From positions 32,001-96,000 of the forward strand of contig JAXHMY010000009.1 in NCBI GenBank assembly GCA_034520965.1: 64,000 nucleotides of DNA, written 5' to 3'. The notes below the pieces were generated by a model that had not been told where the DNA came from, ran no database searches, and saw only the letters and a program-made list of their open reading frames with translations. Source of the stretch: Spirochaetia bacterium. GTDB lineage: Bacteria > Spirochaetota > Spirochaetia > DSM-16054 > Sediminispirochaetaceae. How positions within the stretch are numbered: the first letter of the stretch is position 1; the number at the start of each line of letters is the position of its first letter. A program made the translations under genes and the position numbers. Below are positions 28,870 to 57,196 of this stretch, piece after piece.

Positions 28870-28881
28870 GGTGAAGAAACT

Positions 28882-29247: not shown

Positions 29248-29271
29248 AGCTTCGAATAAAGAGGATGCAGT

Positions 29272-33344: not shown

Positions 33345-33792
33345 AGCCGGCCTCCAGATATTTTTTGATAGCCCTCAGCTGCCCCTCGTAGCCGCTGCAG
33401 CGGCAGAGGTTGCCCGCAAGGTAATGTTTTATCTCTTCTTCACTCGGTGCGTTGAGCTCTTTTTTCATCGCCAGCACGGTCAGAGCAAAACCGGGGGCAC
33501 AGAAACCGCACTGATCGGCCCCTTCGTTGACCAGGTATTCGGAAAACTCTTCGACCTCTTCCCGAAGCCCTTTGATGGTGGTGACCTTCCTGCCGTCGGC
33601 CATCGCGGCCAGGAAGGAGCAGGACAGGATAGGTGACTCGTCCAGCAGCACCGAACACACTCCGCAGCTGCCGGTGTCGCAGCCTTTTTTTACCTCGGTG
33701 TAGCCGGCCGCCCGGAGGCTGTCAGCCAGTATCTCCCCGGGTTTAATATCTAATGATTTTTCTTCGCTGTTTATTTCTAGTGTGATTTTCAT
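33337..33792 (-). CDS. Xanthine dehydrogenase-family [2Fe-2S] subunit
   Basis: GCDTGSCGVC, QCGFC, NLCRCSGY. Confidence 0.95.
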   Translation of the reverse strand: MKITLEINSEEKSLDIKPGEILADSLRAAGYTEVKKGCDTGSCGVCSVLLDESPILSCSFLAAMADGRKVTTIKGLREEVEEFSEYLVNEGADQCGFCAPGFALTVLAMKKELNAPSEEEIKHYLAGNLCRCSGYEGQLRAIKKYLEAGYA

Positions 33793-34577
33793 TCCGCAAC
33801 CTCCATGACCGCTCTTTTTACCAAAACCCGGCAGATTTCCCGCCTGTATTCGGCCTCTCCCCGGATATCGCTGCCGAAACTCAGCTCCTCCGCCGCGGCG
33901 CTGCCGGCTTGTTCGGCGCGCTTTGGGTCCGCCGCCTTATCCGCGCCAAGCACGCCTCCAGCGGTTGCGGCCAGCCGGGCTCGGCCCGGCCGCGCCCCGA
34001 CGGCGATCCGCCATCCCTTCGGACCGAACGCCGCGGCGGCGTTGAGAGCGGCAAAATCCCCGGCGCTGTTCCGGACCGATTGAAAGGCCGCATTGGTGCC
34101 GGTGTCGAGGAGAATTTTTTCTACCAGTACCGGTTCCGACGACCTGTTATTGAGAAAATCCTCGAAGTCTACTGTTCCGTCCCGGTACAGTACGACCCTT
34201 GCGGCCATTGCCAGCAGCGTGGTGTTGAGATCAGAAAAACCGTAGCGTCCGGCGACGGTACCACCGACTGTCACGATGTTTCTCATCTGTACTCCCACAA
34301 TATTTCCCAGGGTACGTGGAAAGAGTCCTCCGAAAACTTCTTTTAATTCCGGGGAGGTTTCGAGATCTCGGGCAGTACTCATCGCGCCGATCTCGATAGC
34401 TGTATCGATACGCCGTATAAAACGAAGATCGAGACGAGTAAGATCCATTGCCGTATCGATCTTCCGGGAATTTAGACGCGACCACGTACCGCCGCCCAAG
34501 GGGTAGGCCTGTCTTTCTTTGAGAAGCGTATACGCTTCATCCAGCGAAGCAGGACGCGTATAGTTAATTATTTCCAT
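33789..34577 (-). CDS. Xanthine dehydrogenase-family FAD subunit
   Basis: PLGGGT, QMRNIVTVGG, DIRGEAEYR. Confidence 0.92.
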   Translation of the reverse strand: MEIINYTRPASLDEAYTLLKERQAYPLGGGTWSRLNSRKIDTAMDLTRLDLRFIRRIDTAIEIGAMSTARDLETSPELKEVFGGLFPRTLGNIVGVQMRNIVTVGGTVAGRYGFSDLNTTLLAMAARVVLYRDGTVDFEDFLNNRSSEPVLVEKILLDTGTNAAFQSVRNSAGDFAALNAAAAFGPKGWRIAVGARPGRARLAATAGGVLGADKAADPKRAEQAGSAAAEELSFGSDIRGEAEYRREICRVLVKRAVMEVAE

Positions 34578-34720
34578 GACTCTTCCTCCCCGTTTCAGTG
34601 TATCACTAATTTTATCACATAGTTTTTCAATATGCAAATATGTTCATACAAGAATGTTGACAAATATTCGGAGAAACACTACAATTTTATGAAAGGGTAA
34701 AAATGGCCGAAGGAGGCTGT

Positions 34721-36862: not shown

Positions 36863-37328
36863 AATAACTTTTTCCGTCAATGGAAAAAGCAGAACGATAG
36901 ACACAAACCCCCTGCGAAGACTTCTCGATGTGTTGCGGGAGGACCTCGGGCTGACCGGGGTGAAGGAGGGATGTGCTGAAGGGGAGTGTGGGGCCTGTTC
37001 TGTTCTCAAAGACGGGCTTTTGGTAAACACCTGCATGGTTCCCATCGGTATCTGTGAAGGATCGGAGATATTAACCCCCGAGGGGCTGCGCGAAACTGAT
37101 CGGGGAAAGGCCATCATCGACGCTTATGCCGAAACGGGTGCGGTGCAGTGCGGTTTCTGCACCCCCGGTATGATGATGGCGAGCGAGGCTCTGTTGGATA
37201 AGAATCCTCAGCCTACGGAAGCAGAAGTGCGTGAAGCCTTGTCGGGTAACCTGTGTCGCTGCACAGGCTACGACATGATAATCGAAGGGGTGCTCAAGGC
37301 GGCGGAAGGGGGGAAGGGACTATGGTAG
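36855..37328 (+). CDS. Xanthine dehydrogenase-family [2Fe-2S] subunit
   Basis: GCAEGECGAC, QCGFCTPG, NLCRCTGY. Confidence 0.95.
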   Translation: MAEITFSVNGKSRTIDTNPLRRLLDVLREDLGLTGVKEGCAEGECGACSVLKDGLLVNTCMVPIGICEGSEILTPEGLRETDRGKAIIDAYAETGAVQCGFCTPGMMMASEALLDKNPQPTEAEVREALSGNLCRCTGYDMIIEGVLKAAEGGKGLW

Positions 37329-38170
37329 ATGCATATCGACCGCAGAGCCTTGAAGAAGCTTTACTGCTTCGAAGTGAAACAGGAGCTATTCCCTTCGCCG
37401 GGGGTACCGATTTGATGGTGAAGTACAGGTATGAATCCGGTGCGGTTCCCGAGTACCCCGGGCCGATTCTCTTTCTGCCGCAGCTGAAAGAGCTGCGCGG
37501 CATACGGGTGAGTGAGGAGGAGATACGCATAGGTGCGGGCAGCACCTTGTCGGAAATCCTCCACTCTCCGCAGGTACCGGAACTCTTAAAAGAAGCGGTA
37601 CGGACTATAGCGGCTCCGGGACTGCGAAACACAGCCACCTTGGGAGGGAATATATGTAACGCCTCCCCGGCGGCAGACGGGGTCTGTGCATTGTACGCTC
37701 TGAACGCGCGGGCCAGGGTTGCCTCGGCCGGTTCTGAGCGGGAATTGCCGCTTTACGATTTTATAACCGGGCCCGGCAAAACCATCCTGGGAGAGGATGA
37801 GTTACTTGTCGCGATTATCCTTCCCATGGAACAATTGTCGCTGCATCTTTTTCGAAAAGTAGGAACGAGAAGGGCGAACGCCCTGGCAAAACTCAATATC
37901 GCCGCAACTGCCAAACTGCGCGGAGATCGTGTGGATGAAGTACGGATCGCCCTGGGCGCGGTTGCTCCGGTAGTGCTCCGTTCTCTGGAGTTGGAAAAAC
38001 AGATGGCGGGTCTGACCAAAACTGAGCTGTCGAAAAAACTTGAGTACTTTGTTGAGGGCTACGAGGCGATGATTCGGCCTATTGATGACCAGCGATCGAC
38101 CGCTGAGTACCGTGGAAAAGTTTCGGTTAAGCTTCTGCGTCAGTTTTTATCCAGCCTGATCGATGCATAG
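37322..38170 (+). CDS. Xanthine dehydrogenase-family FAD subunit
   Basis: AGGTDL, RNTATLGGNICNASPAAD, PIDDQRSTAEYR. Confidence 0.95.
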   Translation: MVDAYRPQSLEEALLLRSETGAIPFAGGTDLMVKYRYESGAVPEYPGPILFLPQLKELRGIRVSEEEIRIGAGSTLSEILHSPQVPELLKEAVRTIAAPGLRNTATLGGNICNASPAADGVCALYALNARARVASAGSERELPLYDFITGPGKTILGEDELLVAIILPMEQLSLHLFRKVGTRRANALAKLNIAATAKLRGDRVDEVRIALGAVAPVVLRSLELEKQMAGLTKTELSKKLEYFVEGYEAMIRPIDDQRSTAEYRGKVSVKLLRQFLSSLIDA

Positions 38171-38195: not shown

Positions 38196-38237
38196 TGGAG
38201 TTAGACGCAAGCGATGAATACATCAAACATCAATATA
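38196..38237 (+). repeat. 42 bp direct repeat, copy 1
   Basis: TGGAGTTAGACGCAAGCGATGAATACATCAAACATCAATATA identical to 45378-45419. Confidence 0.92.
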
Positions 38238-38909: not shown

Positions 38910-39806
38910 ATGAACACATTGATTGATACGCTTCAGTATTTTGTCGTAATTACCCTTGAGTTAATAGTCTTGTTTATTGGGATAACCGCAATTGTTGAAT
39001 TTATTCTAATGCATATATCGGAAGAAAAAATGAAAAAACTTCTTTCCGGTAAAGGTTTATGGGGCAATATCATTGGATCCGGACTTGGAAGCGTGACTCC
39101 ATTTTGTGCTTGTTCAACCATACCTATGACAGTTGGATTTCTAAATGCGAAAGTGCCTTTTGGTGCTACAATGTCATTTTTAATAGCTTCACCATTGGTG
39201 AACCCCATTATTATTGGGATGCTGGCGTTTTTCGTTGGTGTCAAAGCGGCAGCCATCTATTTTTTACTTGCTTTTATTCTATCGGTATTTTTTGGCTTCA
39301 TTCTTGAAAAAACTGGATTCAAAAAATATATAAAGAATGTTCGAGTTAAGGGCGACACAAAAATAAACGAACAAACTCCAAAGCAGTTATCATTTAAGTC
39401 AAAAATAAGAATATCATTATTTGCAGGTTGGTCAACATTAAAGCCGGTTCTAATATTTCTACTAATAGGCGTTGCCATAGGCGCAGTGATTTATGGGTAT
39501 ATGCCTGATGATTTTGTATTAAGAATTGCCGGTCCTGGTAATATTTTTGCCGTTCCTGTTGCCGCACTCGTTGGTGTACCGCTTTATATTAGAGCTGAAA
39601 CAGCAATTCCCATAGCGCTTTCTCTTGTAGAGAAAGGAATGGGTATAGGTACTGCCATCGCTTTAATAATAGGCGGTGCAGGTATGGCAATACCCGAGAT
39701 GAGTATGTTGGCAGGTATTTTTAAAATTAAACTTGTAGCTGCAATAGTTACTGTTATTTTTCTTACAGCCGTTATAAGCGGTTTTGTTTTCAATATTATT
39801 TTATAA
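38910..39806 (+). CDS. DUF318/ArsP-family permease
   Basis: TPFCACSTIP, FLIASPLVNP, GVPLY, GGAG-x-x-IPE. Confidence 0.9.
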   Translation: MNTLIDTLQYFVVITLELIVLFIGITAIVEFILMHISEEKMKKLLSGKGLWGNIIGSGLGSVTPFCACSTIPMTVGFLNAKVPFGATMSFLIASPLVNPIIIGMLAFFVGVKAAAIYFLLAFILSVFFGFILEKTGFKKYIKNVRVKGDTKINEQTPKQLSFKSKIRISLFAGWSTLKPVLIFLLIGVAIGAVIYGYMPDDFVLRIAGPGNIFAVPVAALVGVPLYIRAETAIPIALSLVEKGMGIGTAIALIIGGAGMAIPEMSMLAGIFKIKLVAAIVTVIFLTAVISGFVFNIIL

Positions 39807-44120: not shown

Positions 44121-44145
44121 CCACCGGTTTGGACGATACGTGTCT

Positions 44146-45386
44146 ATGCCTGCAATAAAGCAGAATACCCGGGTGCGCAGATACGCGCGCCTTCTTGTAA
44201 AGGTGGCAGTGAACATTCAGCCGGGGCAGCGATTCACCATATGGAAGGCCCCGGTCGACGCTGCTCCCTTTGTGCGGATGCTTACCGAAGAAGCATATAT
44301 TGCCGGAGCCTCGTATGTAGATGTTTTCTGGCGGGACGATCACCTGGAATTGATCCGCCTCATGCGCACAGCTCCTTCGGTCTACACCGATCGCCCTGAT
44401 TGGGAAGTGACTGTTATGGAAAACTCGGCGAGACAGGGGGTGCATTTCTCTTTTTTGACTGCACCTGTGCGGGGGTCTTTGACAATACCCCAACGGCAAT
44501 GGTAGCCCGAGCGCTGGCATTGGAGAGCGAACATCTTCAACGGGTCTGGCAGTTTTTTGTGCGCAATACGGTCAACTGGTCAATTGCCACGGTTCCGACT
44601 CCAAGCTGGGCACACAAGGTGTTCCCGGAGCTCCCGGTCGAAGAGGGAATACAGGAGCTCTGGGAGACCATTTTTGTCACTTGTCGTATAGATACGGAGA
44701 ATTACGTTGAACGATGGGAGCGACACCGAAGCACCCTGGAGGATCGTAGTCGATTGCTCAATGATTTACGCCTTAGAGCACTCCACTTTGAAGGTCCCGG
44801 GACAGAGTTGAGAGTGGGGCTTCCCCGCGGTCACGTATGGCGCAATCCCGGTTTCGTGACGCAAGACGGAATACCCTTCATCGCGGATATCCCAATAGAA
44901 GAGGTGTTTACCCTGCCGCATCGAAATGAGGTGGAAGGCCATGTTCGTTCGACCAGGCCTTTTGTGGTGAACGGACGAACCGTCGATGATTTCACCCTGC
45001 GGTTTCAGAGAGGAAGGATCACCAGTATCGAGGGGTGCAGGCAGGATCAGGAGATGCTTCGCACGCTTATAAACAACAATGAAGGTGCGGATCGGCTCGG
45101 CGAGGTGGCTCTGGTTCCCGTAGACTCACTGGTGGCTAATCGCGACCGCCCCTATTACAACACCCTGTTCGATGAAAACTCCTCCTCTCACCTCGCCTTT
45201 GGTCGTGCGTACCGTTTCTGTCTCGATGGCGGCGAGGAGCTGTCAGAGGAGAAATTCCTCGCCGCCGGGGGCAATGTTAGCTCCGTTCATGTGGATTTCA
45301 TGGTTGGTTCGACGGAGGTACATGTTTTTGGTGAGACATGGGATGGGCTGCGGATACCGATTATGCAAAATGGAGTGTGGAGTTAG
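44146..45386 (+). pseudogene. M29 (AmpS/aminopeptidase T) peptidase, frameshift at G5 run 44436-44440
   Basis: YARLLVKVAVNIQPGQ N-terminus; IPIEEVFT, LGEVALV, TLFDEN, HLAFG, HVDFM in second frame. Confidence 0.85.
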
Positions 45387-45439
45387 ACGCAAGCGATGAA
45401 TACATCAAACATCAATATATAAAGAATGTTCGAGTTAAG
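45378..45439 (+). repeat. Collapsed remnant of second sigZ-permease copy
   Basis: 45378-45419 = 38196-38237 and 45414-45439 = 39325-39350, joined at AATATA. Confidence 0.88.
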
Positions 45440-45732: not shown

Positions 45733-46176
45733 GCCGAGCAGTGAGCGTAGCGAACGACCGGGCCCTGCAACCCGAGCTATGTATGATTATTTTGGTAATG
45801 AAAAAAGAGTCGTGTGTTACCTGACATAAGTGAAATAGCCGCCAATTTAAATTATAAATTTCATAATGTAGTTATCCTGAGCACAATAATTGTCTGATGC
45901 TGCTTTTTATTGTAAAGGTACGATCAAATTAAGTAGAAATATGTTGAAAATAGCACTTTCAAGTAATCTATTGTTGACAGGAAGAATAAGCTATTTTATC
46001 ATGCAGTCAGTATTGCTTAGAATTTATGTAATGCTTGCGACATATAGGACTTTTTTAACCTAACACCGCGTTCGGCGCCATTTGGCAAGCGTAACGCTTG
46101 GGAAGACTTGTGTAAAACCACCAGATGTCCAGGTGCTTGGCAAGATAAAGGTATTCAATTTTTAGGAGGAATATGT

Positions 46177-47994
46177 ATGAATCCAACTACGGTTAAAGAT
46201 ATGCTAACCGTTGTCGAGAGTTGCATGGGTGATGCACCCCCGTATTGTCATACGGCATGCCCAATGCATACCGACGTAAAAGGTTACGTCAACCTGATCG
46301 CGGATGGTAAACACAAAGAAGCGATTCAGACAATCCGGGAAAAGCTGTTTCTTCCCAAAACCCTTGGACGGGTTTGCGCCCATCCCTGCGAGGAGCAGTG
46401 TAAACGAAACGAGGTGGGTAATGCGATGTCGATTGCGGCGCTCAAACGCTTTGTCGCAGACAACTACGACGATGAGAATGATTGGGACCTCACCTGCGAA
46501 GCGGAGCGACCAGAAAAAATTGCGGTTATTGGAGCAGGACCTGCCGGAGCGCAGGCAGCTCTCGATTTGCGTCGCAACGGATACCAGGTAACGATTTACG
46601 AGAAACATCCGGTTGTGGGCGGTATGTTGTATGTTGGAATACCTTCATACCGGCTGCCGCGGGAAATTATCAATGCTGAATACAGTCTCCTGAACCGTCT
46701 TGGTGTTCGCTTTGAGCTGTCAACTGAAGTTGGCAAGGACATTCCCTTTGATGATCTTGTAGAACAGTATGATGGCGTGGTTATAGCGATTGGTGCACAC
46801 AAGGGATTCAAGCTCCCCGTAAAGGGTGCGGAACTGCCTGGTGCGGTGCAGGCGGTCGATTTTCTGCGTGAGGTGAGTCTGACGGGAAAGTACGAAGGCT
46901 TCGGTAAACGTGTTACCATTATTGGCGGTGGTAACGTTGCCCTTGACTCTGCTCGTACGGCGATACGTCTTGGTGCCGAGAAAGTCCACCTGGTTTGTCT
47001 TGAGCGTGATATCAAGGAAATGTTCGCCCACGACTGGGAAGTTGAGGAAGCCGTTGAAGAAGGCGTCATTCTGCACAACTCCTGGGGTACCGATACGATT
47101 GAGGGTAACGGAAAGGTCGAACGAATCAACCTGAAGAAGTGTATCCAGGTATTCGACCCGAAAGGCCGCTTCAACCCCGCTTATGACGAACAGAACAAGG
47201 ATACGATCGAGACGGACATGGTGATCTTTGCAATCGGCCAGGGTGTGGACAGCGAATTTGCAACGTCGGTGGAAGTTGGTCGGGGCGGTCGCTTTGTCGT
47301 CGACGCGAAAACACTCCAGACCACCAATCGTAAAGTATTTGCCTGCGGCGACGGCACCGGCATCTCGCTTATGGCTGTCGAGGCGATGTCGGAGGGAAGG
47401 ATTGCGGCAGAATCGCTGCATCGGTACCTGAACGGTCGGGATATGCGTTCCAACCGGGATCACGAAAGAGCGTACCGCACCAGCCTTGAGACGACGATTC
47501 CGGCAGATGACACAAATCCTGTTCGGGTCGAGACCCGGAAGATGGATATCGCGACGCGCAAACAAACGTTTAGCGAGGTGGACCTCGGTTTCTCTGAAGA
47601 AGAGGCTCTTAACGAGGCTTCCCGATGTCTTAAATGCGAGTGCCGTCTCTGTGTCAAAGAGTGCCTCATGCTTCAGGAGTATTCGCCGGACAGTCCCAAG
47701 ACCTATTTCAAGGAGGTACTGATCAACGGCAAACTGGATGCTATCACCCCCTTCTCCTGTAATATGTGCGGTACCTGCACACTGGTCTGTCCGAGGGATT
47801 TTAGACTTCAGGAAATTTTCATGAATATGCGGAAAGAACTGGTTGCGGCCAATCACGGCAAGTCGCCGATGAAGGGTCACAAAGCGATCGAAATGCATCA
47901 GCTGTTGGGCTTCTCCCGCATCTTCAATACAACACAAGCGGCCAAAACTTCTGGTAGCAACGGCAAGGAAAAGTCCGCAGGAGGTAGCAAATGA
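46177..47994 (+). CDS. GltD/SudA-like flavo-iron-sulfur oxidoreductase with C-terminal 4Fe-4S dicluster
   Basis: CHTACP, GRVCAHPCE, GAGPAG, GGGNVA, EASRCLKC, CxxCxxEC, CNMCGTCTLVCP. Confidence 0.92.
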   Translation: MNPTTVKDMLTVVESCMGDAPPYCHTACPMHTDVKGYVNLIADGKHKEAIQTIREKLFLPKTLGRVCAHPCEEQCKRNEVGNAMSIAALKRFVADNYDDENDWDLTCEAERPEKIAVIGAGPAGAQAALDLRRNGYQVTIYEKHPVVGGMLYVGIPSYRLPREIINAEYSLLNRLGVRFELSTEVGKDIPFDDLVEQYDGVVIAIGAHKGFKLPVKGAELPGAVQAVDFLREVSLTGKYEGFGKRVTIIGGGNVALDSARTAIRLGAEKVHLVCLERDIKEMFAHDWEVEEAVEEGVILHNSWGTDTIEGNGKVERINLKKCIQVFDPKGRFNPAYDEQNKDTIETDMVIFAIGQGVDSEFATSVEVGRGGRFVVDAKTLQTTNRKVFACGDGTGISLMAVEAMSEGRIAAESLHRYLNGRDMRSNRDHERAYRTSLETTIPADDTNPVRVETRKMDIATRKQTFSEVDLGFSEEEALNEASRCLKCECRLCVKECLMLQEYSPDSPKTYFKEVLINGKLDAITPFSCNMCGTCTLVCPRDFRLQEIFMNMRKELVAANHGKSPMKGHKAIEMHQLLGFSRIFNTTQAAKTSGSNGKEKSAGGSK

Positions 47995-48758
47995 CACCGA
48001 CAAAACGTATCTTTTTCCCAGGATGCAGCCTTCCTTCGTATAACCCGGAGGCGGTTGAAAAAATGATGGAACACCTGAAGGAGCGCCTTCCTGGAACAGG
48101 AGCGATTCTCAAGTGCTGCGGTAAGCCCACCAAGGCCCTTGGCCAGGTGGATAAATTCAAGAAGCGGTACGCCGGTGTACAGAAAGAGTTTGACCGGCTC
48201 GGGGCCGAAGAGATTATCGTCGCCTGCCAGTCCTGTTTTCTGACCCTTTCGGAGTACAGCCCGAAGCAAAAAATACGCTCGCTCTGGACGTTGCTGCCGG
48301 AAATCGGACTGCCCGAGGCCTCCCGCGGTATCGGCAAGGATAGCGACATCACCTTTGCGATTCATGATTCCTGTTCAACCCGGTACCGGTCGGATATCCA
48401 CGAAGGTGTTCGCTGGATCATGGACGAACTCGGATATAAGTATGAGGAACCGCCACATACCAAGGGGTCGACCCTCTGCTGCGGTTTTGGCGGAATGATT
48501 CTGCCGGCCAACCCGGAGCTTGCGCAGCGGATCATGGAGAACCGCACCTCCGAGGTGGAGTCTGAGTACATGGTCACGTACTGTGCGGCGTGCCGCGGGT
48601 CGATGATGATGGGTGGCAAAACTGCTCTTCATATACTTGACCTAATATTCGGCGGTCCCTGGAACTCGAAGTCTACATTTCCCGGTTCCGGCACCACGAT
48701 TGAATCGTGGAAGAACCGGCGGAAGGCAAAAAAGGGACTTGAAACCGTGCTTTCTTAA
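47991..48758 (+). CDS. CCG-domain (HdrB/HdrD-type) Fe-S protein
   Basis: FPGC, CCG, ACQSC, HDSC, CCGFGG, YCAAC. Confidence 0.9.
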   Translation: MTPTKRIFFPGCSLPSYNPEAVEKMMEHLKERLPGTGAILKCCGKPTKALGQVDKFKKRYAGVQKEFDRLGAEEIIVACQSCFLTLSEYSPKQKIRSLWTLLPEIGLPEASRGIGKDSDITFAIHDSCSTRYRSDIHEGVRWIMDELGYKYEEPPHTKGSTLCCGFGGMILPANPELAQRIMENRTSEVESEYMVTYCAACRGSMMMGGKTALHILDLIFGGPWNSKSTFPGSGTTIESWKNRRKAKKGLETVLS

Positions 48759-48859
48759 GGTTTTACCCACCCGGATCTGGCTGCTTAAGGCCCCTCCGGG
48801 TGTATTTTTTATCCTGCGTTTTTTCGCAGGAAAGATTTATCATTACAGGAGTTTGAACA

Positions 48860-49969
48860 ATGAAAAGGATTCTCTTTTTCGGACTGGTTCTCCTGGCAGT
48901 TATTTCGGCAACTTCCCTCTTTGGGGTGGATATTGAGCCGAAATACCAGGAGTACGCTCGCTCTGAGATCTTGATCAGCCCGGAACGGGCGCAGTACCTG
49001 ATGCAGAACGAGGATAATATAGTCGTTGTGGATGTGCGTGATGAGGGAGACTACGAGGCGGGACATCTTCCCGGTGCAGTCAATACATTTCGTAAAGATT
49101 ACGGCGCCCGCGGCGGCGAGTACAACTTAATGTGTATGCGAGTGGATTCTGCAAAGATTCACGAGCTTCTTGGCACCCTTGGAATCGACGGTAACAGCCG
49201 CATCATTGTCTATTCGGCTGGTTCCGGCTTCGATTCGTTTCGTTTCGCGTGGCTCGTCACTATGTACGGACACGACCGGGAGAAGGTGCATATCATCGAC
49301 GGTTTCTTTCCTGCCTGGAAAGCTGCAGGACTGCCTACTACCACCGATAAACCTTCAGTAAGCCCGGTACGCTACCAGCCCCCGGGCACGGTGGACGAGT
49401 CACGGCTTGCACTCATTGAGGATGTGGACCGGGCGCTCAAAGACCCGAATGTGATTATCCTTGATACCCGGACCCCTGCAGAGTGGTGGGGTATTGCGCA
49501 GTACGAGGGTGCGTCCCGCAAGGGCCACATTCCCGGAGCAATCCACATCAACTATGCCGAGAACTTTACCGATGAAGGCATCAAGTCCGCTGCAGAACTG
49601 CGGGCCCTCTATGAGGCGGCCGGCGTCACTCCCGACAAGGAGATTATCGCCTACTGTCAGTCCGGCATACGTTCTTCTCTGACAACCACCATTCTTGCCG
49701 ATGTACTTGGTTATCCCAACGTCAAAAACTACGACGGCTCGTGGGTAGAGTGGAGCTATGATCGCGATCGCCCTGTCACCGCGTATTTTCTTTACATTGT
49801 ATCAGCAGTATTTATCCTTGGTATAGTTGTTATCGGAGCGGCATACATTGTGAAGAGACGAAAAGGCAAGAGCAGCAAACTCCTGAAAATCGATCTGCTT
49901 GTTCTTATTATCTATGCGATTTTTCTGATGTGGTATTTTAACCTCTTCAGCTTAATCAGCGGATCATGA
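48860..49969 (+). CDS. Exported tandem-rhodanese sulfurtransferase, truncated duplicate lacking DedA domain
   Basis: GHLPGA, GHIPGA, YCQSGIR, YDGSWVEW; ends at duplication junction. Confidence 0.85.
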   Translation: MKRILFFGLVLLAVISATSLFGVDIEPKYQEYARSEILISPERAQYLMQNEDNIVVVDVRDEGDYEAGHLPGAVNTFRKDYGARGGEYNLMCMRVDSAKIHELLGTLGIDGNSRIIVYSAGSGFDSFRFAWLVTMYGHDREKVHIIDGFFPAWKAAGLPTTTDKPSVSPVRYQPPGTVDESRLALIEDVDRALKDPNVIILDTRTPAEWWGIAQYEGASRKGHIPGAIHINYAENFTDEGIKSAAELRALYEAAGVTPDKEIIAYCQSGIRSSLTTTILADVLGYPNVKNYDGSWVEWSYDRDRPVTAYFLYIVSAVFILGIVVIGAAYIVKRRKGKSSKLLKIDLLVLIIYAIFLMWYFNLFSLISGS

Positions 49970-50190
49970 AGAACCGTACCTCTGAGGTGGAGTCTGAGCA
50001 CATGGTCACTTACTGTGTGGCGTGCCGCGGGTCGATTATGATGGGCGGCAAAACTGCTCTTCATATACTTGACCTTATATTTGGCGGTCCCTGGAATTCG
50101 CAGTCTACATTTCCCGGTTCCGGCACCACGATTGAATCGTGGAAGAACCGGCGGAAGGCAAAAAAGGGACTTGAATCCGTGCTTGCTTAA
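49957..50190 (+). pseudogene. Duplicated 3' end of CCG-domain gene
   Basis: Repeats last about 75 codons of 47991-48758 with substitutions. Confidence 0.9.
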
Positions 50191-50291
50191 GGCTTTACCT
50201 ACCCGGATCTGGCTGCTTTGGGCCCCTCCGGGTGTATTTTTTATCCTGCGTTTTTTCGCAGGAAAGATTTATCATTACAGGAGTTTGAACA

Positions 50292-51980
50292 ATGAAAAGG
50301 ATTCTCTTTTTCGGACTGGTTCTCTTGGCAGTTATTTCGGCAACTTCCTTGTTTGGGGTGGATATTGAGCCGAAATACCAGGAGTACGCTCGCTCTGAGA
50401 TCTTGATCAGCCCGGAACGGGCGCAGTACCTGATGCAGAACGAGGATAATATAGTCGTTGTGGATGTGCGTGAAGAGGGAGACTACGAGGCGGGACATCT
50501 TCCCGGTGCAGTCAATACATTTCGTAAAGATTACGGCGCCCGCGGCGGCGAGTACAACTTAATGTGTATGCGAGTGGATTCTGCAAAGATTCACGAGCTT
50601 CTTGGCACCCTCGGAATCGACGGTAACAGTCGCATCATTGTCTATTCGGCTGGTTCCGGCTTCGATTCGTTTCGTTTCGCGTGGCTTGTCACCATGTACG
50701 GACACGACCGGGAGAAGGTGCATATCATCGACGGTTTCTTTCCTGCCTGGAAAGCTGCAGGACTGCCTACTACCACCGATAAACCTTCAGTAAGCCCGGT
50801 ACGCTACCAGCCCCCGGGCACGGTGGACGAGTCACGGCTTGCACTCATTGAGGATGTGGACCGGGCGCTCAAAGACCCGAACGTGATAATTCTCGACACC
50901 CGGACCCCTGCAGAGTGGTGGGGTATTGCGCAGTACGAGGGTGCGTCCCGCAAGGGCCACATTCCCGGAGCAATCCACATCAACTATGCCGAGAACTTTA
51001 CCGATGAAGGCATCAAGTCCGCTGCAGAACTGCGGGCCCTCTATGAGGCGGCCGGCGTCACTCCCGACAAGGAGATTATCGCCTACTGTCAGTCCGGCAT
51101 ACGTTCTTCTCTGACAACCACCATTCTTGCCGATGTACTTGGTTATCCCAACGTCAAAAACTACGACGGCTCGTGGGTAGAGTGGAGCTATGATCGCGAT
51201 CGCCCTGTCACCGCGTATTTTCTTTACATTGTATCAGCAGTATTTATCCTTGGTATAGTTGTTATCGGAGCGGCATACATTGTGAAGAGACGAAAAGGCA
51301 AGAGCAGCAAACTCCTGAAAATCGATCTGCTTGTTCTTATTATCTATGCGATTTTTCTGATGTGGTATTTTAACCTCTTCAGCTTGATCAGTATGGACCG
51401 TATCAATGAACTTCAGATGTGGATTGAGAGTTTCGGTTTGTTAGGCCCGGTCGTTTTTATGCTGCTCTTTATTGCGGCGTGTGTTTTCTTCCTACCCGGA
51501 GGTCCGTTTGGCATCATCGCGGGCATCATTTTCGGTCCCATTTTCGGGACAATCTGGGCTATTTTGGGAGCGACAATCGGTGCATCACTGGCTTTCCTTC
51601 TGGGACGATATGCGTTACGAGGTTTTGCGGAAAACCTGGTTGCCAAGAATCCCAAGCTCAAGAAGATAGACGACGGTGTAGAAAAAAACGGGTGGCGCAT
51701 GCTTATGATTACCCGCTTTATACCGATTTTTCCGTTTAATGTACAGAATTATGTATACGGGCTGACCAAGATCAAGTTTGTAACCTATGCCGGCCTCTCC
51801 TTCCTGTTTATGCTGCCGGGTACAATGGCGTACGTCTTTATAGCCGGCGCAGCCGTTTCCGGAGCGAATATGTCAACAATCCTGATCTACTTCGCTATCG
51901 GTGCCATCATCCTGGTTGGCCTGTCCCTGCTTCCTAAATTACTGAAAAAGAAGAGTAATGTTGAAGACATAATCGAGTAA
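50292..51980 (+). CDS. Tandem-rhodanese sulfurtransferase fused to TVP38/TMEM64 (DedA/VTT) membrane domain
   Basis: Signal peptide, YCQSGIR active loop, then GATIGASLAFLLGRY and RFIPIFPFNVQNY. Confidence 0.92.
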   Translation: MKRILFFGLVLLAVISATSLFGVDIEPKYQEYARSEILISPERAQYLMQNEDNIVVVDVREEGDYEAGHLPGAVNTFRKDYGARGGEYNLMCMRVDSAKIHELLGTLGIDGNSRIIVYSAGSGFDSFRFAWLVTMYGHDREKVHIIDGFFPAWKAAGLPTTTDKPSVSPVRYQPPGTVDESRLALIEDVDRALKDPNVIILDTRTPAEWWGIAQYEGASRKGHIPGAIHINYAENFTDEGIKSAAELRALYEAAGVTPDKEIIAYCQSGIRSSLTTTILADVLGYPNVKNYDGSWVEWSYDRDRPVTAYFLYIVSAVFILGIVVIGAAYIVKRRKGKSSKLLKIDLLVLIIYAIFLMWYFNLFSLISMDRINELQMWIESFGLLGPVVFMLLFIAACVFFLPGGPFGIIAGIIFGPIFGTIWAILGATIGASLAFLLGRYALRGFAENLVAKNPKLKKIDDGVEKNGWRMLMITRFIPIFPFNVQNYVYGLTKIKFVTYAGLSFLFMLPGTMAYVFIAGAAVSGANMSTILIYFAIGAIILVGLSLLPKLLKKKSNVEDIIE

Positions 51981-51987
51981 TTAGTTA

Positions 51988-52599
51988 TTAATTCGTTGAA
52001 TTGCCAGGGGCTTCGTTTTCGAAGCCCCTGATATTAAGGATGTAGGCGTACTGCCGGAAAAACAGTAGAAGCTTGCGCCCCCGTGCTTCCTCTAGAGAGA
52101 GCCCTATGTGCTTAAAGGTGCTTCTCCATTGAGCGTCTGTTTTGTTGGAGTGGGGGTGGCCGAAAAACTCCATGTTGAACAAACTGTCTATGAAGAACGT
52201 AAGGTATTTTTGCAAGCAATTACTATACACATCCTCTATGATGATAATTTTCCTGCACACCCGGGAAGTTTCTTTTAAGATGGCCTCAGGATCGGGGGTG
52301 TGGTGCAGGACGGTAAGCAGTAATCCGCAATCAAAATGCTTATCGGGAAAGGGAATCTGGATTCCATCATACAGTGTGGGGGCAAGACTCGGATCAAGAC
52401 TCTTGTCTTTGACATCGAGAGAAGTAACATGATATCTTTTTTCACGAAGAGCGAAGGATACCGCCCCTTTACCGGAGCCAATATCAAGGATAGTGCTTTT
52501 TTCCGGCAGGAAGCCTTCAATGTGATTGAGTTTACCCTGAGCCCATACTCTCGAGAGGTAACGGGAAAATGAGTTTAACGAAATGTTGCTGTGTTTCAT
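51988..52599 (-). CDS. Class I SAM-dependent methyltransferase
   Basis: ILDIGSGKG, IPFPDKHFD, VLHH. Confidence 0.9.
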   Translation of the reverse strand: MKHSNISLNSFSRYLSRVWAQGKLNHIEGFLPEKSTILDIGSGKGAVSFALREKRYHVTSLDVKDKSLDPSLAPTLYDGIQIPFPDKHFDCGLLLTVLHHTPDPEAILKETSRVCRKIIIIEDVYSNCLQKYLTFFIDSLFNMEFFGHPHSNKTDAQWRSTFKHIGLSLEEARGRKLLLFFRQYAYILNIRGFENEAPGNSTN

Positions 52600-52650
52600 T
52601 GCCGGTAGTATATACCAGCAGGCAGTGGATTGCATAGCGGAGGAGAGTAC

Positions 52651-53238
52651 ATGCTGGATACCTATGCCAGAAAACTGGTTCAGCCCTTATTTGAGCGCTT
52701 GGCAACGATTTGTATCCGCCTGCATCTTTCGCCTAATACTATCACCTTGATATCATTGCTGGTTGGAGTGTTTGCAGGTCTTTTTATTTACTTGAACATG
52801 CCCCTTGCAGCACTTGCATGTCTATGGTGTTCCGGGCTCCTGGATGTGCTTGATGGGACTGTTGCGCGTCGGACAGGGAAGGTTTCGGCCTTTGGAACGG
52901 TTATGGATATTACCTTTGACAGAATTGTCGAGTTATCCCTTGTGATAGGAATTGCCTGCAGGAATCCGGATATTACATTCTACCTCCTTATCCTTACTGC
53001 ATCAATCGTTATCTCAATGACCATTTTCCTTACTGTGGCTGCGGCGGCGGATAAAAGCGGAATAAAAAGTTTTTTCTATCAAGCCGGCATTGCGGAACGT
53101 TCAGAAGGGTTCATCATGTTCAGTTTGATGATCATCTTTTCACAATGGGCCGGGTTGATTACCTTAATATTCGCCGGTATGATTTTCTTTACAGCACTGC
53201 AGCGTTTTTTCGAGGCTAAAAGGCTGTTTGAAAAATGA
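52651..53238 (+). CDS. CDP-alcohol phosphatidyltransferase family (YnjF-like)
   Basis: SPNTIT, DVLDGTVAR...FGTVMDITFDR, KSFFYQAGIAERSEG. Confidence 0.92.
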   Translation: MLDTYARKLVQPLFERLATICIRLHLSPNTITLISLLVGVFAGLFIYLNMPLAALACLWCSGLLDVLDGTVARRTGKVSAFGTVMDITFDRIVELSLVIGIACRNPDITFYLLILTASIVISMTIFLTVAAAADKSGIKSFFYQAGIAERSEGFIMFSLMIIFSQWAGLITLIFAGMIFFTALQRFFEAKRLFEK

Positions 53239-54263
53239 ATCCGCAGGCCATTGTCCGGGTGAATCAGGTATACAAACAATACAATACTACTCAGGCTGTA
53301 TGCGGAGTTGATTTTGACCTGCACAGGGGAGAGCTGTTATGCATTGTCGGACCATCGGGAGCGGGAAAAACAACCTTGCTTCGTTTGTTGGCCGATCTTG
53401 AAGATGTGGATGGCGGCTACATTGTTTTTTCACAGCCGCCCTGCCGGGAACACCCTGTTGTCCTTGTGTTTCAGGATTTTTTGCTGTTTCCAAGCATGAC
53501 TGTAGAGGCAAACATTGGATTCGGATTAAAAGCACGTAAGCTTCCAAAGGCAGAAATCAAAGAACGGGTGGAACATCTCCTGGGATCCTTTGGCATTCAG
53601 GATAAAGCCATGCAGTATCCTGGACAGCTTTCCGCGGGTCAACAACAGCGGGTCGCTTTGGCCCGGGCCTTAGCGATCCGGCCGCGGATTCTCCTGTTAG
53701 ATGAGCCCTTTGCCCATCTGGATAAAACATTAAAAATGGAAACAGCACTTTTCCTTCGAAGGATGATCAGAGAGTTTCATATCACCGCCATGGCGGTAAC
53801 TCATGACCTGCAGGAGGCCTTTGCCATGAGTGATCGTATCGGTATTATGATCGATGGAAGAATGGAACAGATTGGTCCGGTAGATGAGGTATATGCGGCA
53901 CCTGCATCTTTGGAAGCAGCGAAGTTCCTTGGGCCTGTCAATCGCTTTCCCGCAGGCCTGCTCCAATCTATGGAGATAAGCAAACAACTGCAGCAAGAAA
54001 TCGATCAGGGTATCTATGGCATACCCTTTGAGCCGGAAACACCACTCTTTTGCCGAGCCGAAAGCATAACTGTATCGCCTCATTCGCAGGGCGGCGGTGT
54101 GGTAGAAGATGTTACCTTTGTCGGAATGATGGTGATGTATCATATTCGCAGCTTTTACTCCAACAAACCATACGTATTAAATGTTTTCAGTCTGGACACT
54201 ACTATCAAACCCGGTACCCGGGTTATGATACATATAACTCATATAACAGTAGAGGAGGGCTAA
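53235..54263 (+). CDS. ABC transporter ATP-binding protein (YnjD-like position)
   Basis: GPSGAGKT, LSAGQQQR, LLLDEPF, VTHD. Confidence 0.95.
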   Translation: MNPQAIVRVNQVYKQYNTTQAVCGVDFDLHRGELLCIVGPSGAGKTTLLRLLADLEDVDGGYIVFSQPPCREHPVVLVFQDFLLFPSMTVEANIGFGLKARKLPKAEIKERVEHLLGSFGIQDKAMQYPGQLSAGQQQRVALARALAIRPRILLLDEPFAHLDKTLKMETALFLRRMIREFHITAMAVTHDLQEAFAMSDRIGIMIDGRMEQIGPVDEVYAAPASLEAAKFLGPVNRFPAGLLQSMEISKQLQQEIDQGIYGIPFEPETPLFCRAESITVSPHSQGGGVVEDVTFVGMMVMYHIRSFYSNKPYVLNVFSLDTTIKPGTRVMIHITHITVEEG

Positions 54264-54265
54264 GG

Positions 54266-55492
54266 ATGATAAAACGATTTCTTACAGTCATCATGATGAT
54301 AATGGCTTCACATCTTTTTGCACTCGGTACAGCCGAGACAGCAGATTTTAACTGGCAGGATGCAAGCTGGGAAGAAATACTCGAAGAGGCAGACGGTACT
54401 GAGGTATCGTTTCACATGTGGGGCGGTGACTCAGCAATCAATGAATGGATTGAAGGCTATGTGGCTGAGGAACTTAAAAAACGTTACAACGTAACCCTCA
54501 ATATGGTGCCCATGAACGCTCTCCTCTTTGTAGACCGCTTGTTGGCCGAGAAAGAGGCTGGACGTACTGGGGGCAGCATCGATCTAATGTGGATAAATGG
54601 AGAGAACTTTAAACGAACAAAAGAAGCTGAGGCACTGCTGGGGCCATTTGCACATAAACTTCCAAATTTTAATAATTATGTCGACCCGGAAACAGCTAAA
54701 TACGACTCCGGATATCCGACCAACGGCTATGAGGTGCCTTATGGGCAGGCTCAGTTTGTGTTTGAATACGACTCTGCGGCCGACCATGGCTGGCTGCCGG
54801 AAAGCTTTGCAAGCTTGCCGCAATGGGTTCGTGAAAATCCGGGTATGTTTACCTATCCGGAGCCGAGCGATTTTACCGGTTCTGCCTTTATTCGGCAGGT
54901 ATTTATTGCAATAACTGGCGGCTCCCAGCAATATCTTGAGGGATGGGATCCTGAACTCTACGAAAAAAATGCACCGCTTCTATGGGAATATTTGAATGAT
55001 ATTGCACCCTATCTCTGGCAACGTGGAAGGAGTTATCCCCGTGAGTTGTCCGTCCTGGATTCGATGTTTGAGCGTGGTGAGGTTGCGATTAATATGAACT
55101 TCACTCAGGCGAATGCACAGTCACGTATTATTGAAGGTCGTTACCCAGAGACGGTCCGCACCTTTGTTATGGAGGAGGGTACAATTTCCAACTCCCATTT
55201 TACTGCAATTGCCTTTAATGCACCTAATCCTGCGGGAGCTCTCGTTTTGTCCAACTTACTGCTGGATCCGGCTGTGCAAGCCTCGAAGAACGATCCTGCA
55301 AACTGGGGCGATTTTACTGTATTAGATATGGAAAAGCTTAGTCCCCAGGACCGGGCCCGTTTTGATGCCATAGATTTAGGGGAAGCGACGTTGAGCCCGG
55401 ATGAATTAAAGGCCGCAGCTGTCCAGGAAATCCCTTCAGAATATCTGGAAGCGCTTCAGAATGATTGGTTCATCCACGTTCTTGAAAAATAG
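54266..55492 (+). CDS. ABC substrate-binding protein (YnjB-like)
   Basis: WGGD, IDLMWINGENF, FTYPEPSDFTGSAF motifs. Confidence 0.88.
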   Translation: MIKRFLTVIMMIMASHLFALGTAETADFNWQDASWEEILEEADGTEVSFHMWGGDSAINEWIEGYVAEELKKRYNVTLNMVPMNALLFVDRLLAEKEAGRTGGSIDLMWINGENFKRTKEAEALLGPFAHKLPNFNNYVDPETAKYDSGYPTNGYEVPYGQAQFVFEYDSAADHGWLPESFASLPQWVRENPGMFTYPEPSDFTGSAFIRQVFIAITGGSQQYLEGWDPELYEKNAPLLWEYLNDIAPYLWQRGRSYPRELSVLDSMFERGEVAINMNFTQANAQSRIIEGRYPETVRTFVMEEGTISNSHFTAIAFNAPNPAGALVLSNLLLDPAVQASKNDPANWGDFTVLDMEKLSPQDRARFDAIDLGEATLSPDELKAAAVQEIPSEYLEALQNDWFIHVLEK

Positions 55493-56357
55493 AAATTCTT
55501 TCTCCGGGAAGCGCAGCTTCTTTAAAGGGGAACTGTATAAGCTCACTCCTCTTCTTATCCCCGGGCTGATGCTTGCTGCTGGAATCCTCTATACACTGCA
55601 GCTGTCACTGCAGCCAGCAGATTTATCAGCCTATCAGGCTGCGCTTGCCCAGCCGGGATTAGTAAGAAACATCTTTTTCTCACTCTATGTCGCAGCGATA
55701 TCGACTGTGGTATCTATCGCTGCCGGGACTGCTTTGGCCTATCTCGTCTGGCGTCTGCCTTCAGCTTATGGGCGTTGGGGACAAGCCTTTCTGGTTCCGC
55801 TGGTTCTCCCGCATATTGCAGTGGGCTTTCTGGTCCTGCTGTGGTTCAGCCAAACGGGGATTCTGGCTTCGATGTTTGAACGCTTATCTGGGGTTTTCCC
55901 TCTTGCGAGTTCTTTCCAGTCTCCTCTTTTTAAAGGCAATGGCGCTGGAATCATCCTTGGGTATGTTTACAAGTCCACCCCCTTTGCCCTTCTGCTCATT
56001 ATGCCTGTACTGCGCCGAATTCCAAAAAACTATCTTCAAACCGGGCTAATGCTTGGTGCCAGTGAATTCCGCTGCTTTTATAAGATAATCCTTCCACGGT
56101 TGGTTCCAGGAATATCTGCTGCTGCCATCATTATATTTGTCTACAGTTTTGGCGCCTACGATCTTCCTTTCATTGTTGGGGAAAGTAGACCCCGTATGAT
56201 TAGCCTCTATCTGTATCGTCTCTATTTTACTCGGCCAATAGCTGAGCGCCCGACTGCTGCGGCGCTGCTGCTGCTTGTATTCTTGTGCGGGATTGCAATG
56301 GTTATGCTTTACGCCCGGGCGGTTCGTCCTGCAGAGGAGAGGGAGCGTAAACTATGA
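55461..56357 (+). CDS. ABC transporter permease
   Basis: Multi-TM with EAA-loop-like LGASEFRCFYKIILP; start uncertain. Confidence 0.88.
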   Translation: MIGSSTFLKNRNSFSGKRSFFKGELYKLTPLLIPGLMLAAGILYTLQLSLQPADLSAYQAALAQPGLVRNIFFSLYVAAISTVVSIAAGTALAYLVWRLPSAYGRWGQAFLVPLVLPHIAVGFLVLLWFSQTGILASMFERLSGVFPLASSFQSPLFKGNGAGIILGYVYKSTPFALLLIMPVLRRIPKNYLQTGLMLGASEFRCFYKIILPRLVPGISAAAIIIFVYSFGAYDLPFIVGESRPRMISLYLYRLYFTRPIAERPTAAALLLLVFLCGIAMVMLYARAVRPAEERERKL

Positions 56358-57196
56358 AACTCTCTCCTGCTACACTATTCTCCAGTAAGCAAAGAGGAAA
56401 CATAATCTTGTTTTGGCTTCTATTAATAGTAGTCATACTAGTTCCCCTCATTTTTCTGCTTATTGCATCCTTTGCTGGTACATGGCCCTTTCCCCGAATC
56501 CTGCCGGCAAGCTGGTCGTTGCGCTCATGGAAGTATGTAGCCTCCAATATGCAAGGCATTGCGCATGCCCTTGGCAGCTCTGCACTCTATTCCCTTGGAG
56601 CTGCTCTTATTACCGCACTCTTCTGTTGGCTCCCTGCCCAGTTTTTAGCCAGGCACACATTCCGTGGCCAGACGATTCTGGAGGCACTCTTGCTAACCCC
56701 CGCCTTGGTTCCCGCCATCACTTTCTCTATGGGATTGCAGGTATTATTCATCCGATTGCATCTTGCTGACTCAATAGTCGGGGTGGTTCTGATTCTCACC
56801 CTGGTTTCCTATCCCTATATGTTGCGCTCGATCAAAACCGGATACCTTGCCTATAAGGTATCCTACGATGAATGTGCCCGTAACCTCGGCATCGGTGAAC
56901 TGCAGCGCCTGTGGCATGTGGAATTGCCCCTGGTTCTACCCGCTTTTCTTTCCGGTGGAACCATAGTATTCCTTGTTGCCTTCTCCGAATATTTTCTGGT
57001 CTTTCTCATTGGGGGCGGAACCATTCCCTCCTTCCCGGGCTATCTTGTACCATTCCTGACTGGATCTGATCGTGCTGTTGCTTCTACTTTGACACTGCTT
57101 TTCCTGCTCGTTCCCTTTGCCCTTTTCCTCCTTCAGGAAATATTTTTAGAGCGCTTCTACCGCCGAAAGGGAATAACCATGACCGGAAAAAGCTGA
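56354..57196 (+). CDS. ABC transporter permease
   Basis: WPFPRILP, ECARNLG, FSEYFL. Confidence 0.9.
   Translation: MKLSPATLFSSKQRGNIILFWLLLIVVILVPLIFLLIASFAGTWPFPRILPASWSLRSWKYVASNMQGIAHALGSSALYSLGAALITALFCWLPAQFLARHTFRGQTILEALLLTPALVPAITFSMGLQVLFIRLHLADSIVGVVLILTLVSYPYMLRSIKTGYLAYKVSYDECARNLGIGELQRLWHVELPLVLPAFLSGGTIVFLVAFSEYFLVFLIGGGTIPSFPGYLVPFLTGSDRAVASTLTLLFLLVPFALFLLQEIFLERFYRRKGITMTGKS

Follow-up and report, generated by a model that had tools for sequence, protein, structure and literature searches.

A ynj-like gene cluster with a flavoprotein–CCG reductase in a Spirochaetia bacterium and its possible part in arsenosugar lipid metabolism

The cluster and the island around it

We analyzed a 64,000-nucleotide stretch of DNA (hereafter, the window) from a Spirochaetia bacterium of the family Sediminispirochaetaceae (contig JAXHMY010000009.1, assembly GCA_034520965.1), and in particular its gene cluster at positions 46177 to 57196, in which a flavoprotein–CCG reductase and a rhodanese–DedA fusion stand beside homologs of the Escherichia coli ynj genes. 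The whole window belongs to a 3.35-Mb genome that is 86% complete. What is new here is the link between the CCG protein and the binding protein YnjB, an interchangeable trio of reductase, DedA protein and exported thiol protein, and the null results of controls for arsenic resistance and selenium. We tentatively read the cluster as one that imports a glyceryl arsenoriboside and attaches it to a lipid. The original prediction, made from the letters of the DNA, had named the genes of the cluster, and every one of them was confirmed on the strand given there, as follows.

45974..46002, + strand: predicted sigma-70 promoter of the reductase unit (TTGACA-17-TATCAT, 11/12 consensus; best of 21 sites, against 12.5 expected)
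46177..47994, + strand: GltD/NfnB-like flavin adenine dinucleotide (FAD)/NAD(P)H oxidoreductase, 605 amino acids, with an Fe-S domain at the N terminus and a 2x[4Fe-4S] dicluster at the C terminus (Pfam Fer4_20, Pyr_redox_2, C-terminal Fer4_17)
47991..48758, + strand: two-domain CCG protein, HdrB-like, 255 amino acids (Pfam CCG twice), the predicted partner of the dicluster
48860..49969, + strand: duplicated exported rhodanese, 369 amino acids, with two membrane helices and without the DedA domain
49957..50190, + strand: remnant of the 3′ end of the CCG gene inside the duplication, lacking a start (~93% identical to 48525–48758)
50292..51980, + strand: exported tandem rhodanese fused through two transmembrane helices to a YdjX-type VTT/DedA domain, 562 amino acids (Pfam Rhodanese twice, VTT_dom)
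51988..52635, − strand: class I S-adenosylmethionine (SAM) methyltransferase, likely start 52599 (Pfam Methyltransf_11)
52651..53238, + strand: YnjF-like cytidine diphosphate (CDP)-alcohol phosphotransferase, 195 amino acids (Pfam CDP-OH_P_transf)
53235..54263, + strand: ATP-binding cassette (ABC) transporter ATPase, YnjD-like, PotA/PhnT class (profile matches, blastp)
54266..55492, + strand: YnjB-family substrate-binding protein, 408 amino acids (NF008633)
55461..56357, + strand: ABC permease 1, corresponding to the N-terminal half of YnjC
56354..57196, + strand: ABC permease 2, corresponding to the C-terminal half of YnjC

Judging from the sequence, the cluster probably forms three transcription units rather than one, since promoter-like sites occur at 45974 and 52409, a strong predicted hairpin follows the DedA gene and separates it from the convergent methyltransferase gene, and the latter is divergent from the transferase gene. 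The minus-strand methyltransferase was considered as an ArsM and rejected: it did not match NF008823, and no ArsM match was present anywhere in the 86%-complete genome. Its homologs (59–61% identity) adjoin the same genes in three other loci (L003, L074 and L125), and an Atlas look-up of it returned generic names only. Spirochaetota proteins were the nearest relatives of the binding protein. The only sequencing runs containing the window were salt-pan metagenomes of one sample, possibly its source, and no RNA dataset was listed among them.

A 1,432-bp tandem duplication (~48525–49956 and 49957–51380) had been overlooked in the original prediction. Alignment of its copies shows 34 differences, of which 3 lie upstream of the junction, and the two rhodanese copies share 99% DNA identity, with 11 of their 12 changed codons synonymous and one non-synonymous. 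With these differences, mostly silent in the rhodanese, the duplication is not a perfect assembly repeat, and an assembly error is unlikely given the divergence between the copies. The junction creates a stop ahead of the DedA domain in the first rhodanese copy. In contigs of two runs, the depth of the repeat was approximately double (10.9 versus ~5–6, and 6.4 versus ~2–5); both runs are from the same sample, the junction is not covered by any single contig, and depth does not equate to copy number.

Arsenic genes lie on both sides of the cluster. To the left, arsP, arsD and arsA are found 3 kb away, beyond a frameshifted aminopeptidase gene; to the right are ArsR, split ArsP/DUF318 permeases, a thioredoxin and a CoA-disulfide-reductase-like gene, and neither the ArsR nor the DUF318 family is specific to arsenic. 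The island has a mosaic make-up that includes repeats and a low-GC cassette, and the place of the cluster among ars genes is probably incidental to this mosaic. Several observations describe the island further. A 42-bp exact direct repeat (38196–38237 and within 45378–45439) flanks a sigZ-arsP-arsD-arsA-ylbF-ylbF block; its right copy interrupts the frameshifted aminopeptidase gene (44140–45386) and continues directly into a 26-bp copy of arsP-internal sequence (39325–39350), which looks like what is left of the low-GC (36%) sigZ-arsP cassette after a deletion. A second arsenic block at 23446–29643 contains CoA-disulfide-reductase-like, arsR, acr3-like and YlbF-like genes and fragments of a second arsA near 28100–28500. 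Two divergent xanthine-dehydrogenase-type molybdoenzyme operons occupy 31014–38170; selD was not found in the genome.

The reductase, the importer and their gene neighborhoods

The flavoprotein scored 427 bits with PRK12771 (cut-off 516) and 283 bits with NF045663 (cut-off 530). Its nearest solved chains were 9bov, 8oh5 and NfnA 9n5u, and no transmembrane helix was predicted in it. The CCG protein has two CCG domains with five Cys residues each, and all ten were invariant across 30 homologs. In four other loci (L129, L130, L131 and L060), the dicluster or the whole flavoprotein is fused to CCG. When the dicluster (residues 465–605) and the CCG protein were modeled as a complex, the score was 0.86, against 0.00 for the best of three controls, and the runs shared at least 90% of contacts with a partner pLDDT (predicted local distance difference test) of at least 91. 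The mark applied to these models was reached by 51 of 78 solved pairs and by 2 of 108 mismatched pairs. This pass may reflect likeness more than anything new, as the two proteins correspond to the halves of genes that are fused in other genomes and resemble HdrBC. The HdrD-type architecture of dicluster plus CCG in the original prediction was thus borne out by the domains, the ten Cys residues and the complex model.

Next, the association of the reductase with ynj genes was analyzed from both directions. A YnjB search gave 364 matching loci, of which the best 80 were read; among 301 genomes of the class to which the window belongs, 52 were YnjB-positive and 40 of their loci were read. This CCG reductase stood beside YnjB in 2/80 of the best loci and 1/40 of the spirochaete loci. 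Among 300 Clostridia genomes, 16 had CCG matches, and the top five of these were all YnjB-positive while the other 11 had no YnjB, which occurred in 8/300 genomes overall; the hypergeometric value for this overlap (3e-9) is overstated, since related genomes are not independent. DedA adjoins the CCG gene in four of the five top Clostridia genomes, and in the fifth, L129, neither DedA nor ynj genes are adjacent. The co-occurrence implied by the original prediction was tight when viewed from the CCG gene (5/5 top genomes) but rare when viewed from YnjB. The reductase subfamily and ynj genes were found within the same operon in L034, L060, L084, L125, L128 and L130. In L125, from another spirochaete family, the flavoprotein-CCG-rhodanese-DedA-methyltransferase block is 80–86% identical to ours, the methyltransferase 59%, but the YnjB to which it is linked belongs to another lineage (33%) and the genes are ordered differently. 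A metagenome scan with the CCG protein yielded three loci, two of them short. The sequence evidence suggests that the reductase was acquired horizontally, because the CCG protein nests among Bacillota sequences on the CCG tree and its gene was absent from 9/9 congeners, at least one of which (G199) has a MerA-like version of the ynj locus.

For neighborhood counts, 130 YnjB loci were read and eight duplicates dropped, leaving 122 distinct loci, three of them chosen via the CCG gene, and neighbors within 9 kb were recorded. A MerA-like flavoprotein substitutes for the CCG reductase more often than the latter occurs (22/122), and the two were never found together. DedA accompanied a redox gene in 28/37 loci versus 9/85 (median p of 0.012 for independent pairs), and a lipid module in 30/50 versus 7/72; the CDP-alcohol transferase, in turn, was found with DedA in 21/31 versus 16/91. 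CCG pairs with rhodanese (6/8) and the MerA-like protein with an exported CxxxxC DUF547 protein (5/22), never crosswise, and no rhodanese was present in any of the 22 MerA-like loci. The redox partners form interchangeable sets: dicluster-CCG with rhodanese; the MerA-like protein, sometimes with DUF547; and YnjA with YnjE and YdjY in E. coli.

The binding protein passed the YnjB family NF008633/PRK11622 with 489.6 bits against a cut-off of 203, and its model reached a pLDDT of 95. A fold search placed it in the class of polyamine, phosphonate, sugar-phosphate and thiamine binders at 12–18% identity. A PDB sequence search with the single protein gave no match, and one with a profile gave two weak matches to polyamine binders. 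The putative pocket residues (W52-G-G, D106, W109, N111-G-E-N-F, D147, E156, D202, F203 and R210) were identical across the neighbor sets described below, and no conserved Cys was present in the aligned putative pocket in any set. The transferase retains the catalytic motif DxxDGxxAR...GxxxDxxxD and scored 57 bits versus 22 in Pfam; its nearest solved chains were the inositol-type synthases 4mnd and 6h53. Against E. coli K-12, blastp gave 39% identity for YnjB, 23–25% for YnjC, 33% for YnjD, 28% for YnjF, 39% for YdjX and 25% for YnjE. No tblastn match to the AhpD-like YnjA or the lipoprotein YdjY was found at E 1e-4 in the 86%-complete genome. The ynj likeness stated in the original prediction accordingly stands for YnjB, C, D, F, YdjX and YnjE, but not for YnjA.

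The rhodanese–DedA fusion begins with a signal peptide, and transmembrane peaks at 305 and 339–344, with a basic loop, precede its DedA core. The signal peptide, the two membrane helices and the basic loop place the rhodanese outside and the reductase inside. The VTT domain is the part that matches YdjX, and the rhodanese part the one that matches YnjE, for which a role with the molybdenum cofactor has been proposed. Cys266 (loop CQSGIR) aligns with the catalytic loop of YnjE, and the protein is predicted to be a sulfurtransferase; it also weakly resembles ExtH. The catalytic position in nine aligned rhodanese rows is Cys in seven, a selenocysteine codon in one and Ser in one. At L167:5610-10593, a rhodanese lipoprotein, a nucleoside hydrolase and YnjB have split YeeE/YedE-type genes for sulfur transport between them. 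At L090:14357-16648, within a ynj locus that adjoins acr3-like, arsR and thioredoxin genes, a 764-amino-acid open frame combines a DedA domain with a pair of short-chain dehydrogenase domains.

Among the 122 YnjB loci, neighbor sets were formed by the CDP-alcohol transferase (31 loci), TIGR04282/TIGR04283 (19), often accompanied by APH kinase (21), and nucleoside hydrolases (22). The CDP-alcohol transferase overlapped with each of the other sets in no locus (Fisher p 0.001–0.003; the phylogenetic control is given below). As background, methylthioribose kinase is an APH-family enzyme and CofC is a nucleotidyltransferase. In twelve loci, mostly of Chloroflexota (L027, L029, L031, L033, L043, L046, L048, L049, L057, L062, L064 and L069), YnjB stands with nucleoside hydrolase, ADP-ribosylglycohydrolase, phosphorylase, isomerase, kinase, aldolase and aldehyde dehydrogenase genes. 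The hydrolase, phosphorylase, isomerase, kinase, aldolase and aldehyde dehydrogenase neighbors point to a riboside substrate. These loci are a candidate route for degrading the same riboside, in which an arsenosugar would end as dimethylarsinoyl-acetate or -ethanol; arsenosugars break down anaerobically to dimethylarsinoyl-ethanol.

We then read neighborhoods of ArsS in 35 Desulfobacterota loci, of 79 listed matches. These held DedA in 16, TIGR04283 in 15, TIGR04282 in 12, a MerA-like protein in 10, TIGR04169 in 17, CCG in 2, and YnjB or the CDP-alcohol transferase in none, so that these loci have the helpers of the cluster without its importer. In L173:9556-15111 and L174:7158-12680, ArsS is fused to ArsM, with both domain orders represented; the same operons contain TIGR04282, TIGR04283, a fusion of dicluster, CCG and DedA, and a small rhodanese that is exported. 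The counterparts of our trio in arsenosugar operons are distant (25–27% identity). A recurring cluster of open reading frames in the ArsS loci was considered as ArsM and proved to consist of antisense frames. Two YnjB-type arrangements bring the sets together: in L127, TIGR04283, TIGR04282 and APH genes adjoin homologs of flavoprotein, CCG, rhodanese and DedA (59%, 72%, 45% and 57% identity), and in L130, TIGR04283, TIGR04282, APH, YnjBCD and CCG form one operon. YnjB was present in 2/201 Desulfobacterota genomes, one of them with ArsS. ArsS, ArsM, TIGR04282 and TIGR04283 were not found in the 86%-complete genome of the window, which thus does not resemble that of an arsenosugar maker; TIGR04169 was not found in it either, and ArsS was not found in ten other YnjB genomes checked. 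Making by ArsM/ArsS and import by YnjBCD look like alternative entries. An arsenic link, if real, would run through the ArsS/TIGR04282/TIGR04283 gene set and not through resistance genes.

As controls, 40 YnjB-positive spirochaete genomes (of 51, picked for completeness) were compared with 40 YnjB-negative ones (of 245). selD did not track YnjB (14/40 versus 14/40), and ArsS was found in 0/40 and 0/40. ArsR/ArsP-like genes were near YnjB in 4/122 loci (the window, L090, L107 and L130), which is a floor from queries without Acr3, ArsC and ArsM; L090 additionally holds an Acr3-like gene. Together with the acr3 counts given below, this indicated that the tie to the arsenic island drawn in the original prediction is not conserved. 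selD was also not found in G295, the holder of the closest full module, and selenium uptake was rejected because selD was not found here and does not co-occur with YnjB.

A proposed pathway weighed against its rivals

We propose, as a possible and still tentative reading, that the cell takes up a glyceryl arsenoriboside, attaches a phosphatidyl group to it, scrambles the lipid by means of DedA, reduces the head group on the inner side and transfers sulfur on the outer side. YnjBCD, to judge from its family membership, would import a 5-substituted riboside, for which AsSug328, a glyceryl arsenoriboside, or the thio form of this compound is the likeliest candidate. YnjF, with its intact motif, would move phosphatidyl from CDP-diacylglycerol onto the glycerol hydroxyl, producing an arsenosugar phospholipid. 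This lipid would be scrambled by the YdjX-type DedA domain, following the activity proposed for its subfamily. In the cytoplasm, electrons would flow from NAD(P)H to FAD, the dicluster and the two CCG clusters, a path whose architecture is observed, whose binding is modeled and whose direction is presumed, and the flavoprotein–CCG reductase would reduce an As(V)=O or As(V)=S head group. Outside, Cys266 of the rhodanese may exchange sulfane sulfur with the head group. As the genome lacks ArsS and ArsM, this organism would be an arsenosugar salvager, not a maker. The import of a head group and its attachment to a lipid, proposed in the original prediction, fit the comparative data, namely the neighbor sets and the association of DedA with the lipid module.

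The masses are compatible with this reading: AsSug328 plus dipalmitoyl-phosphatidic acid, which we take to be 648, minus water gives 328 + 648 − 18 = 958, the mass of AsSugPL958. According to the accessible part of PMC6656958, AsSug328 is C10H21AsO7 and gut anaerobes form thio-AsSug328 from it. The accessible part of PMC11009773 describes AsSugPL958 as the 16:0/16:0 species and names AsSug328 as a possible precursor, and that of PMC12159101 describes ArsS as a radical SAM enzyme in arsenosugar synthesis.

Several results weigh against the arsenoriboside reading. acr3 did not track YnjB in the spirochaete genomes (22/40 versus 22/40). The fold search of the binding protein named no ligand and ranked polyamine binders first. 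To our knowledge, no arsenolipid is known from E. coli, although the ynj system is present there. No YnjB gene was found closer than 9 kb to ArsS in the 35 loci. The arsenic link is indirect, running through the context-based NCBI names TIGR04282, TIGR04283 and TIGR04169, families not found here. The absence of ArsS from this genome is weak support, because YnjB-negative spirochaete genomes lack it too and in one genome, G765, it coexists with YnjB. With phylogenetic control, the exclusion between the CDP-alcohol transferase and the TIGR04282/TIGR04283/APH set ran in the expected direction but was not significant (nine independent pairs, 0 the same way, ~3 opposite, median p 0.25); the two states switch at least five times on the YnjB tree, and 48/121 loci on it carry none of the three sets. 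Redox genes both inside and outside were present in only 14/37 DedA-bearing loci. The rhodanese–DedA protein of the complete CCG-ynj operon L084:1266-2792 has Ser in place of the catalytic Cys, and its rhodanese part has no Cys at all. Finally, the exported rhodanese lipoprotein gene at L131:12022-13030 (genome G302) has an in-frame TGA at the catalytic position with a hairpin after it; by its sequence, this gene, which has DedA and dicluster-CCG neighbors, probably encodes a rhodanese with selenocysteine.

Some of these results suit other explanations. The imported riboside may contain sulfur, or some other 5-substituent free of arsenic (as in a methylthio, sulfo or deoxy ribose), so that the product would be a thio-glycolipid that is flipped and redox-cycled. 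We regard this as rather doubtful, yet the APH kinase, sulfoquinovose-isomerase-like and DeoC/LacD aldolase neighbors resemble methylthioribose and sulfo-sugar pathways, rhodanese and CCG proteins are sulfur enzymes, YnjB is untied to acr3, and the FNR activation in E. coli (PMC3688515, accessible part) fits it; the helper genes, on the other hand, adjoin the ArsS-ArsM fusions of L173 and L174 and occur in about half of the 35 ArsS loci. An unlikely alternative, near to the version in the original prediction, is a sulfur or selenium relay, in which the rhodanese on the outside would take on selenium or sulfane sulfur, which would then cross with the aid of DedA and be released by the CCG reductase, while the importer and transferase would meet a related need of their own. 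The weak ExtH likeness, the selenocysteine of L131, the YeeE/YedE-type genes of L167, SelD-N-terminus-like flavoproteins near 6/122 YnjB loci and the "near Sec" name of NF045663 would agree with such a relay; against it are the missing selD here and in G295, the flat selD counts, the MerA-like variant without rhodanese, and the tracking of the lipid module by DedA, which a simple relay does not need.

That the cluster is a resistance device, detoxifying thioarsenates or organoarsenicals by reduction, methylation and lipid sequestration, seems quite improbable: arsP, arsD, arsA, arsR and acr3 surround it here and ArsR/ArsP-like genes adjoin it in L090, L107 and L130, but the floor of 4/122 loci and the even acr3 counts speak against it, an ATP-driven importer would be odd in such a device, the island is a mosaic of repeats and a low-GC cassette, and the 20 kb read at L125, the closest module, contain no ars genes. 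It is very improbable that the transferase uses a soluble CDP-alcohol, e.g., CDP-glycerol, to form a water-soluble phosphodiester (AsSug482 or a compatible solute) and no lipid; the solved structure nearest to the enzyme is the di-myo-inositol phosphate synthase 4mnd and only salt-pan metagenomes hold the window, whereas the cluster has no cytidylyltransferase and the transferase tracks DedA. Equally far from likely is a chance meeting of unrelated reductase and transporter cassettes in a mobile island. The three probable transcription units, the differing GC content at third codon positions between the halves and the absence of the CCG gene from the congeners would allow it, but it is largely refuted by the overlap of CCG and YnjB in Clostridia, by L125, in which the halves rejoin with a distant YnjB, a near reductase module and another gene order, and by the single operons of the Bacillota loci L034, L060, L128 and L130.

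A further view extends the arsenoriboside reading and is improbable in our estimate: arsenic as a cofactor, with the arsenosugar phospholipid being a membrane-bound two-electron and sulfur shuttle. An NAD(P)H reductase (flavoprotein–CCG, MerA-like or AhpD-like) would reduce the As(V) head group in the cytoplasm, the COG0398 DedA protein would flip the lipid, and an exported thiol protein (rhodanese, DUF547 or YdjY) would re-oxidize or sulfurate the head group. ArsM/ArsS would make this head group, YnjBCD-YnjF would salvage it, and E. coli would have the salvage version.

A literature search found no paper tying ynj genes to arsenosugars, nor a function assignment for E. coli ydjX-ynjF, the COG0398 DedA proteins or an arsenosugar-phosphatidyl enzyme; most subscription papers, and for the former also all supplements, lay outside its scope. 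The proposal gives the orphan ydj-ynj genes a testable role, as the YnjB ligand, the YnjF reaction and the DedA lipid can all be approached via one cluster. If the arsenoriboside reading is true, anaerobic heterotrophs take up arsenosugars from algae and turn them into arsenolipids, which would supply a step now missing from the arsenic cycle, and if the shuttle is also true, arsenic has a positive biochemical role. If the ligand is non-arsenical, the cluster still points to a novel head-group lipid.

Comparison with known systems

The reductase shares the dicluster and two complete CCG domains with HdrD/HdrBC and their relatives TfrB, GlpC and LdhH. HdrB carries non-cubane clusters. However, no Hdr model was reached (TfrB, 51 bits versus a cut-off of 385), the single PDB match was weak (9ojn, E 3e-5), the cluster has no HdrA or HdrE partner, and electrons would enter here through the GltD/NfnB-like flavoprotein, with DedA and rhodanese as partners. 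A literature search on the CCG motif found no paper. The best family for the CCG protein was NF045663, the "near Sec" pyridine nucleotide-disulfide oxidoreductase/dicluster-binding protein, which has the same domain order, here spread across two genes. The 283 and 232 bits of the two proteins, each and summed, remain below 530, and the CCG protein falls in a separate group of the CCG tree from the 750–800-amino-acid proteins, whose 11 other genomes lack YnjB.

The arsenosugar gene set (ArsM, the radical SAM protein ArsS TIGR04167, TIGR04169, TIGR04282 and TIGR04283) shares DedA, dicluster-CCG and exported rhodanese with the cluster, while TIGR04282 and TIGR04283 are common to that set and to other YnjB loci. 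For COG0398 (YdjX/YdjZ/TVP38-type) DedA proteins, phospholipid scrambling has been proposed, and their commonest fusion partners are pyridine-nucleotide disulfide oxidoreductases (bioRxiv 10.1101/2023.01.04.522824). Our VTT domain, with its 39% identity to YdjX, has a redox partner as reported for the subfamily; in contrast, it is fused to an outside rhodanese and occurs in anaerobes, whereas the same paper ties the subfamily to aerobic metabolism.

The closest counterpart is the E. coli K-12 system of ydjX-ydjY-ydjZ-ynjA-ynjB-ynjC-ynjD, ynjE and ynjF (b1750–b1758), in which ydjXYZ-ynjABCD and ynjE are FNR-activated according to the accessible part of PMC3688515. The importer, YnjF, YdjX and the exported rhodanese are the same, with YnjC split in two here. 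In contrast, the cluster has one DedA protein instead of two, a two-domain rhodanese fused to it, and an extra flavoprotein-dicluster-CCG reductase and methyltransferase. The parent ynj operon is thus known, and the cluster is a variant of it with a different reductase, a rhodanese–DedA fusion, a duplicated rhodanese and a methyltransferase.

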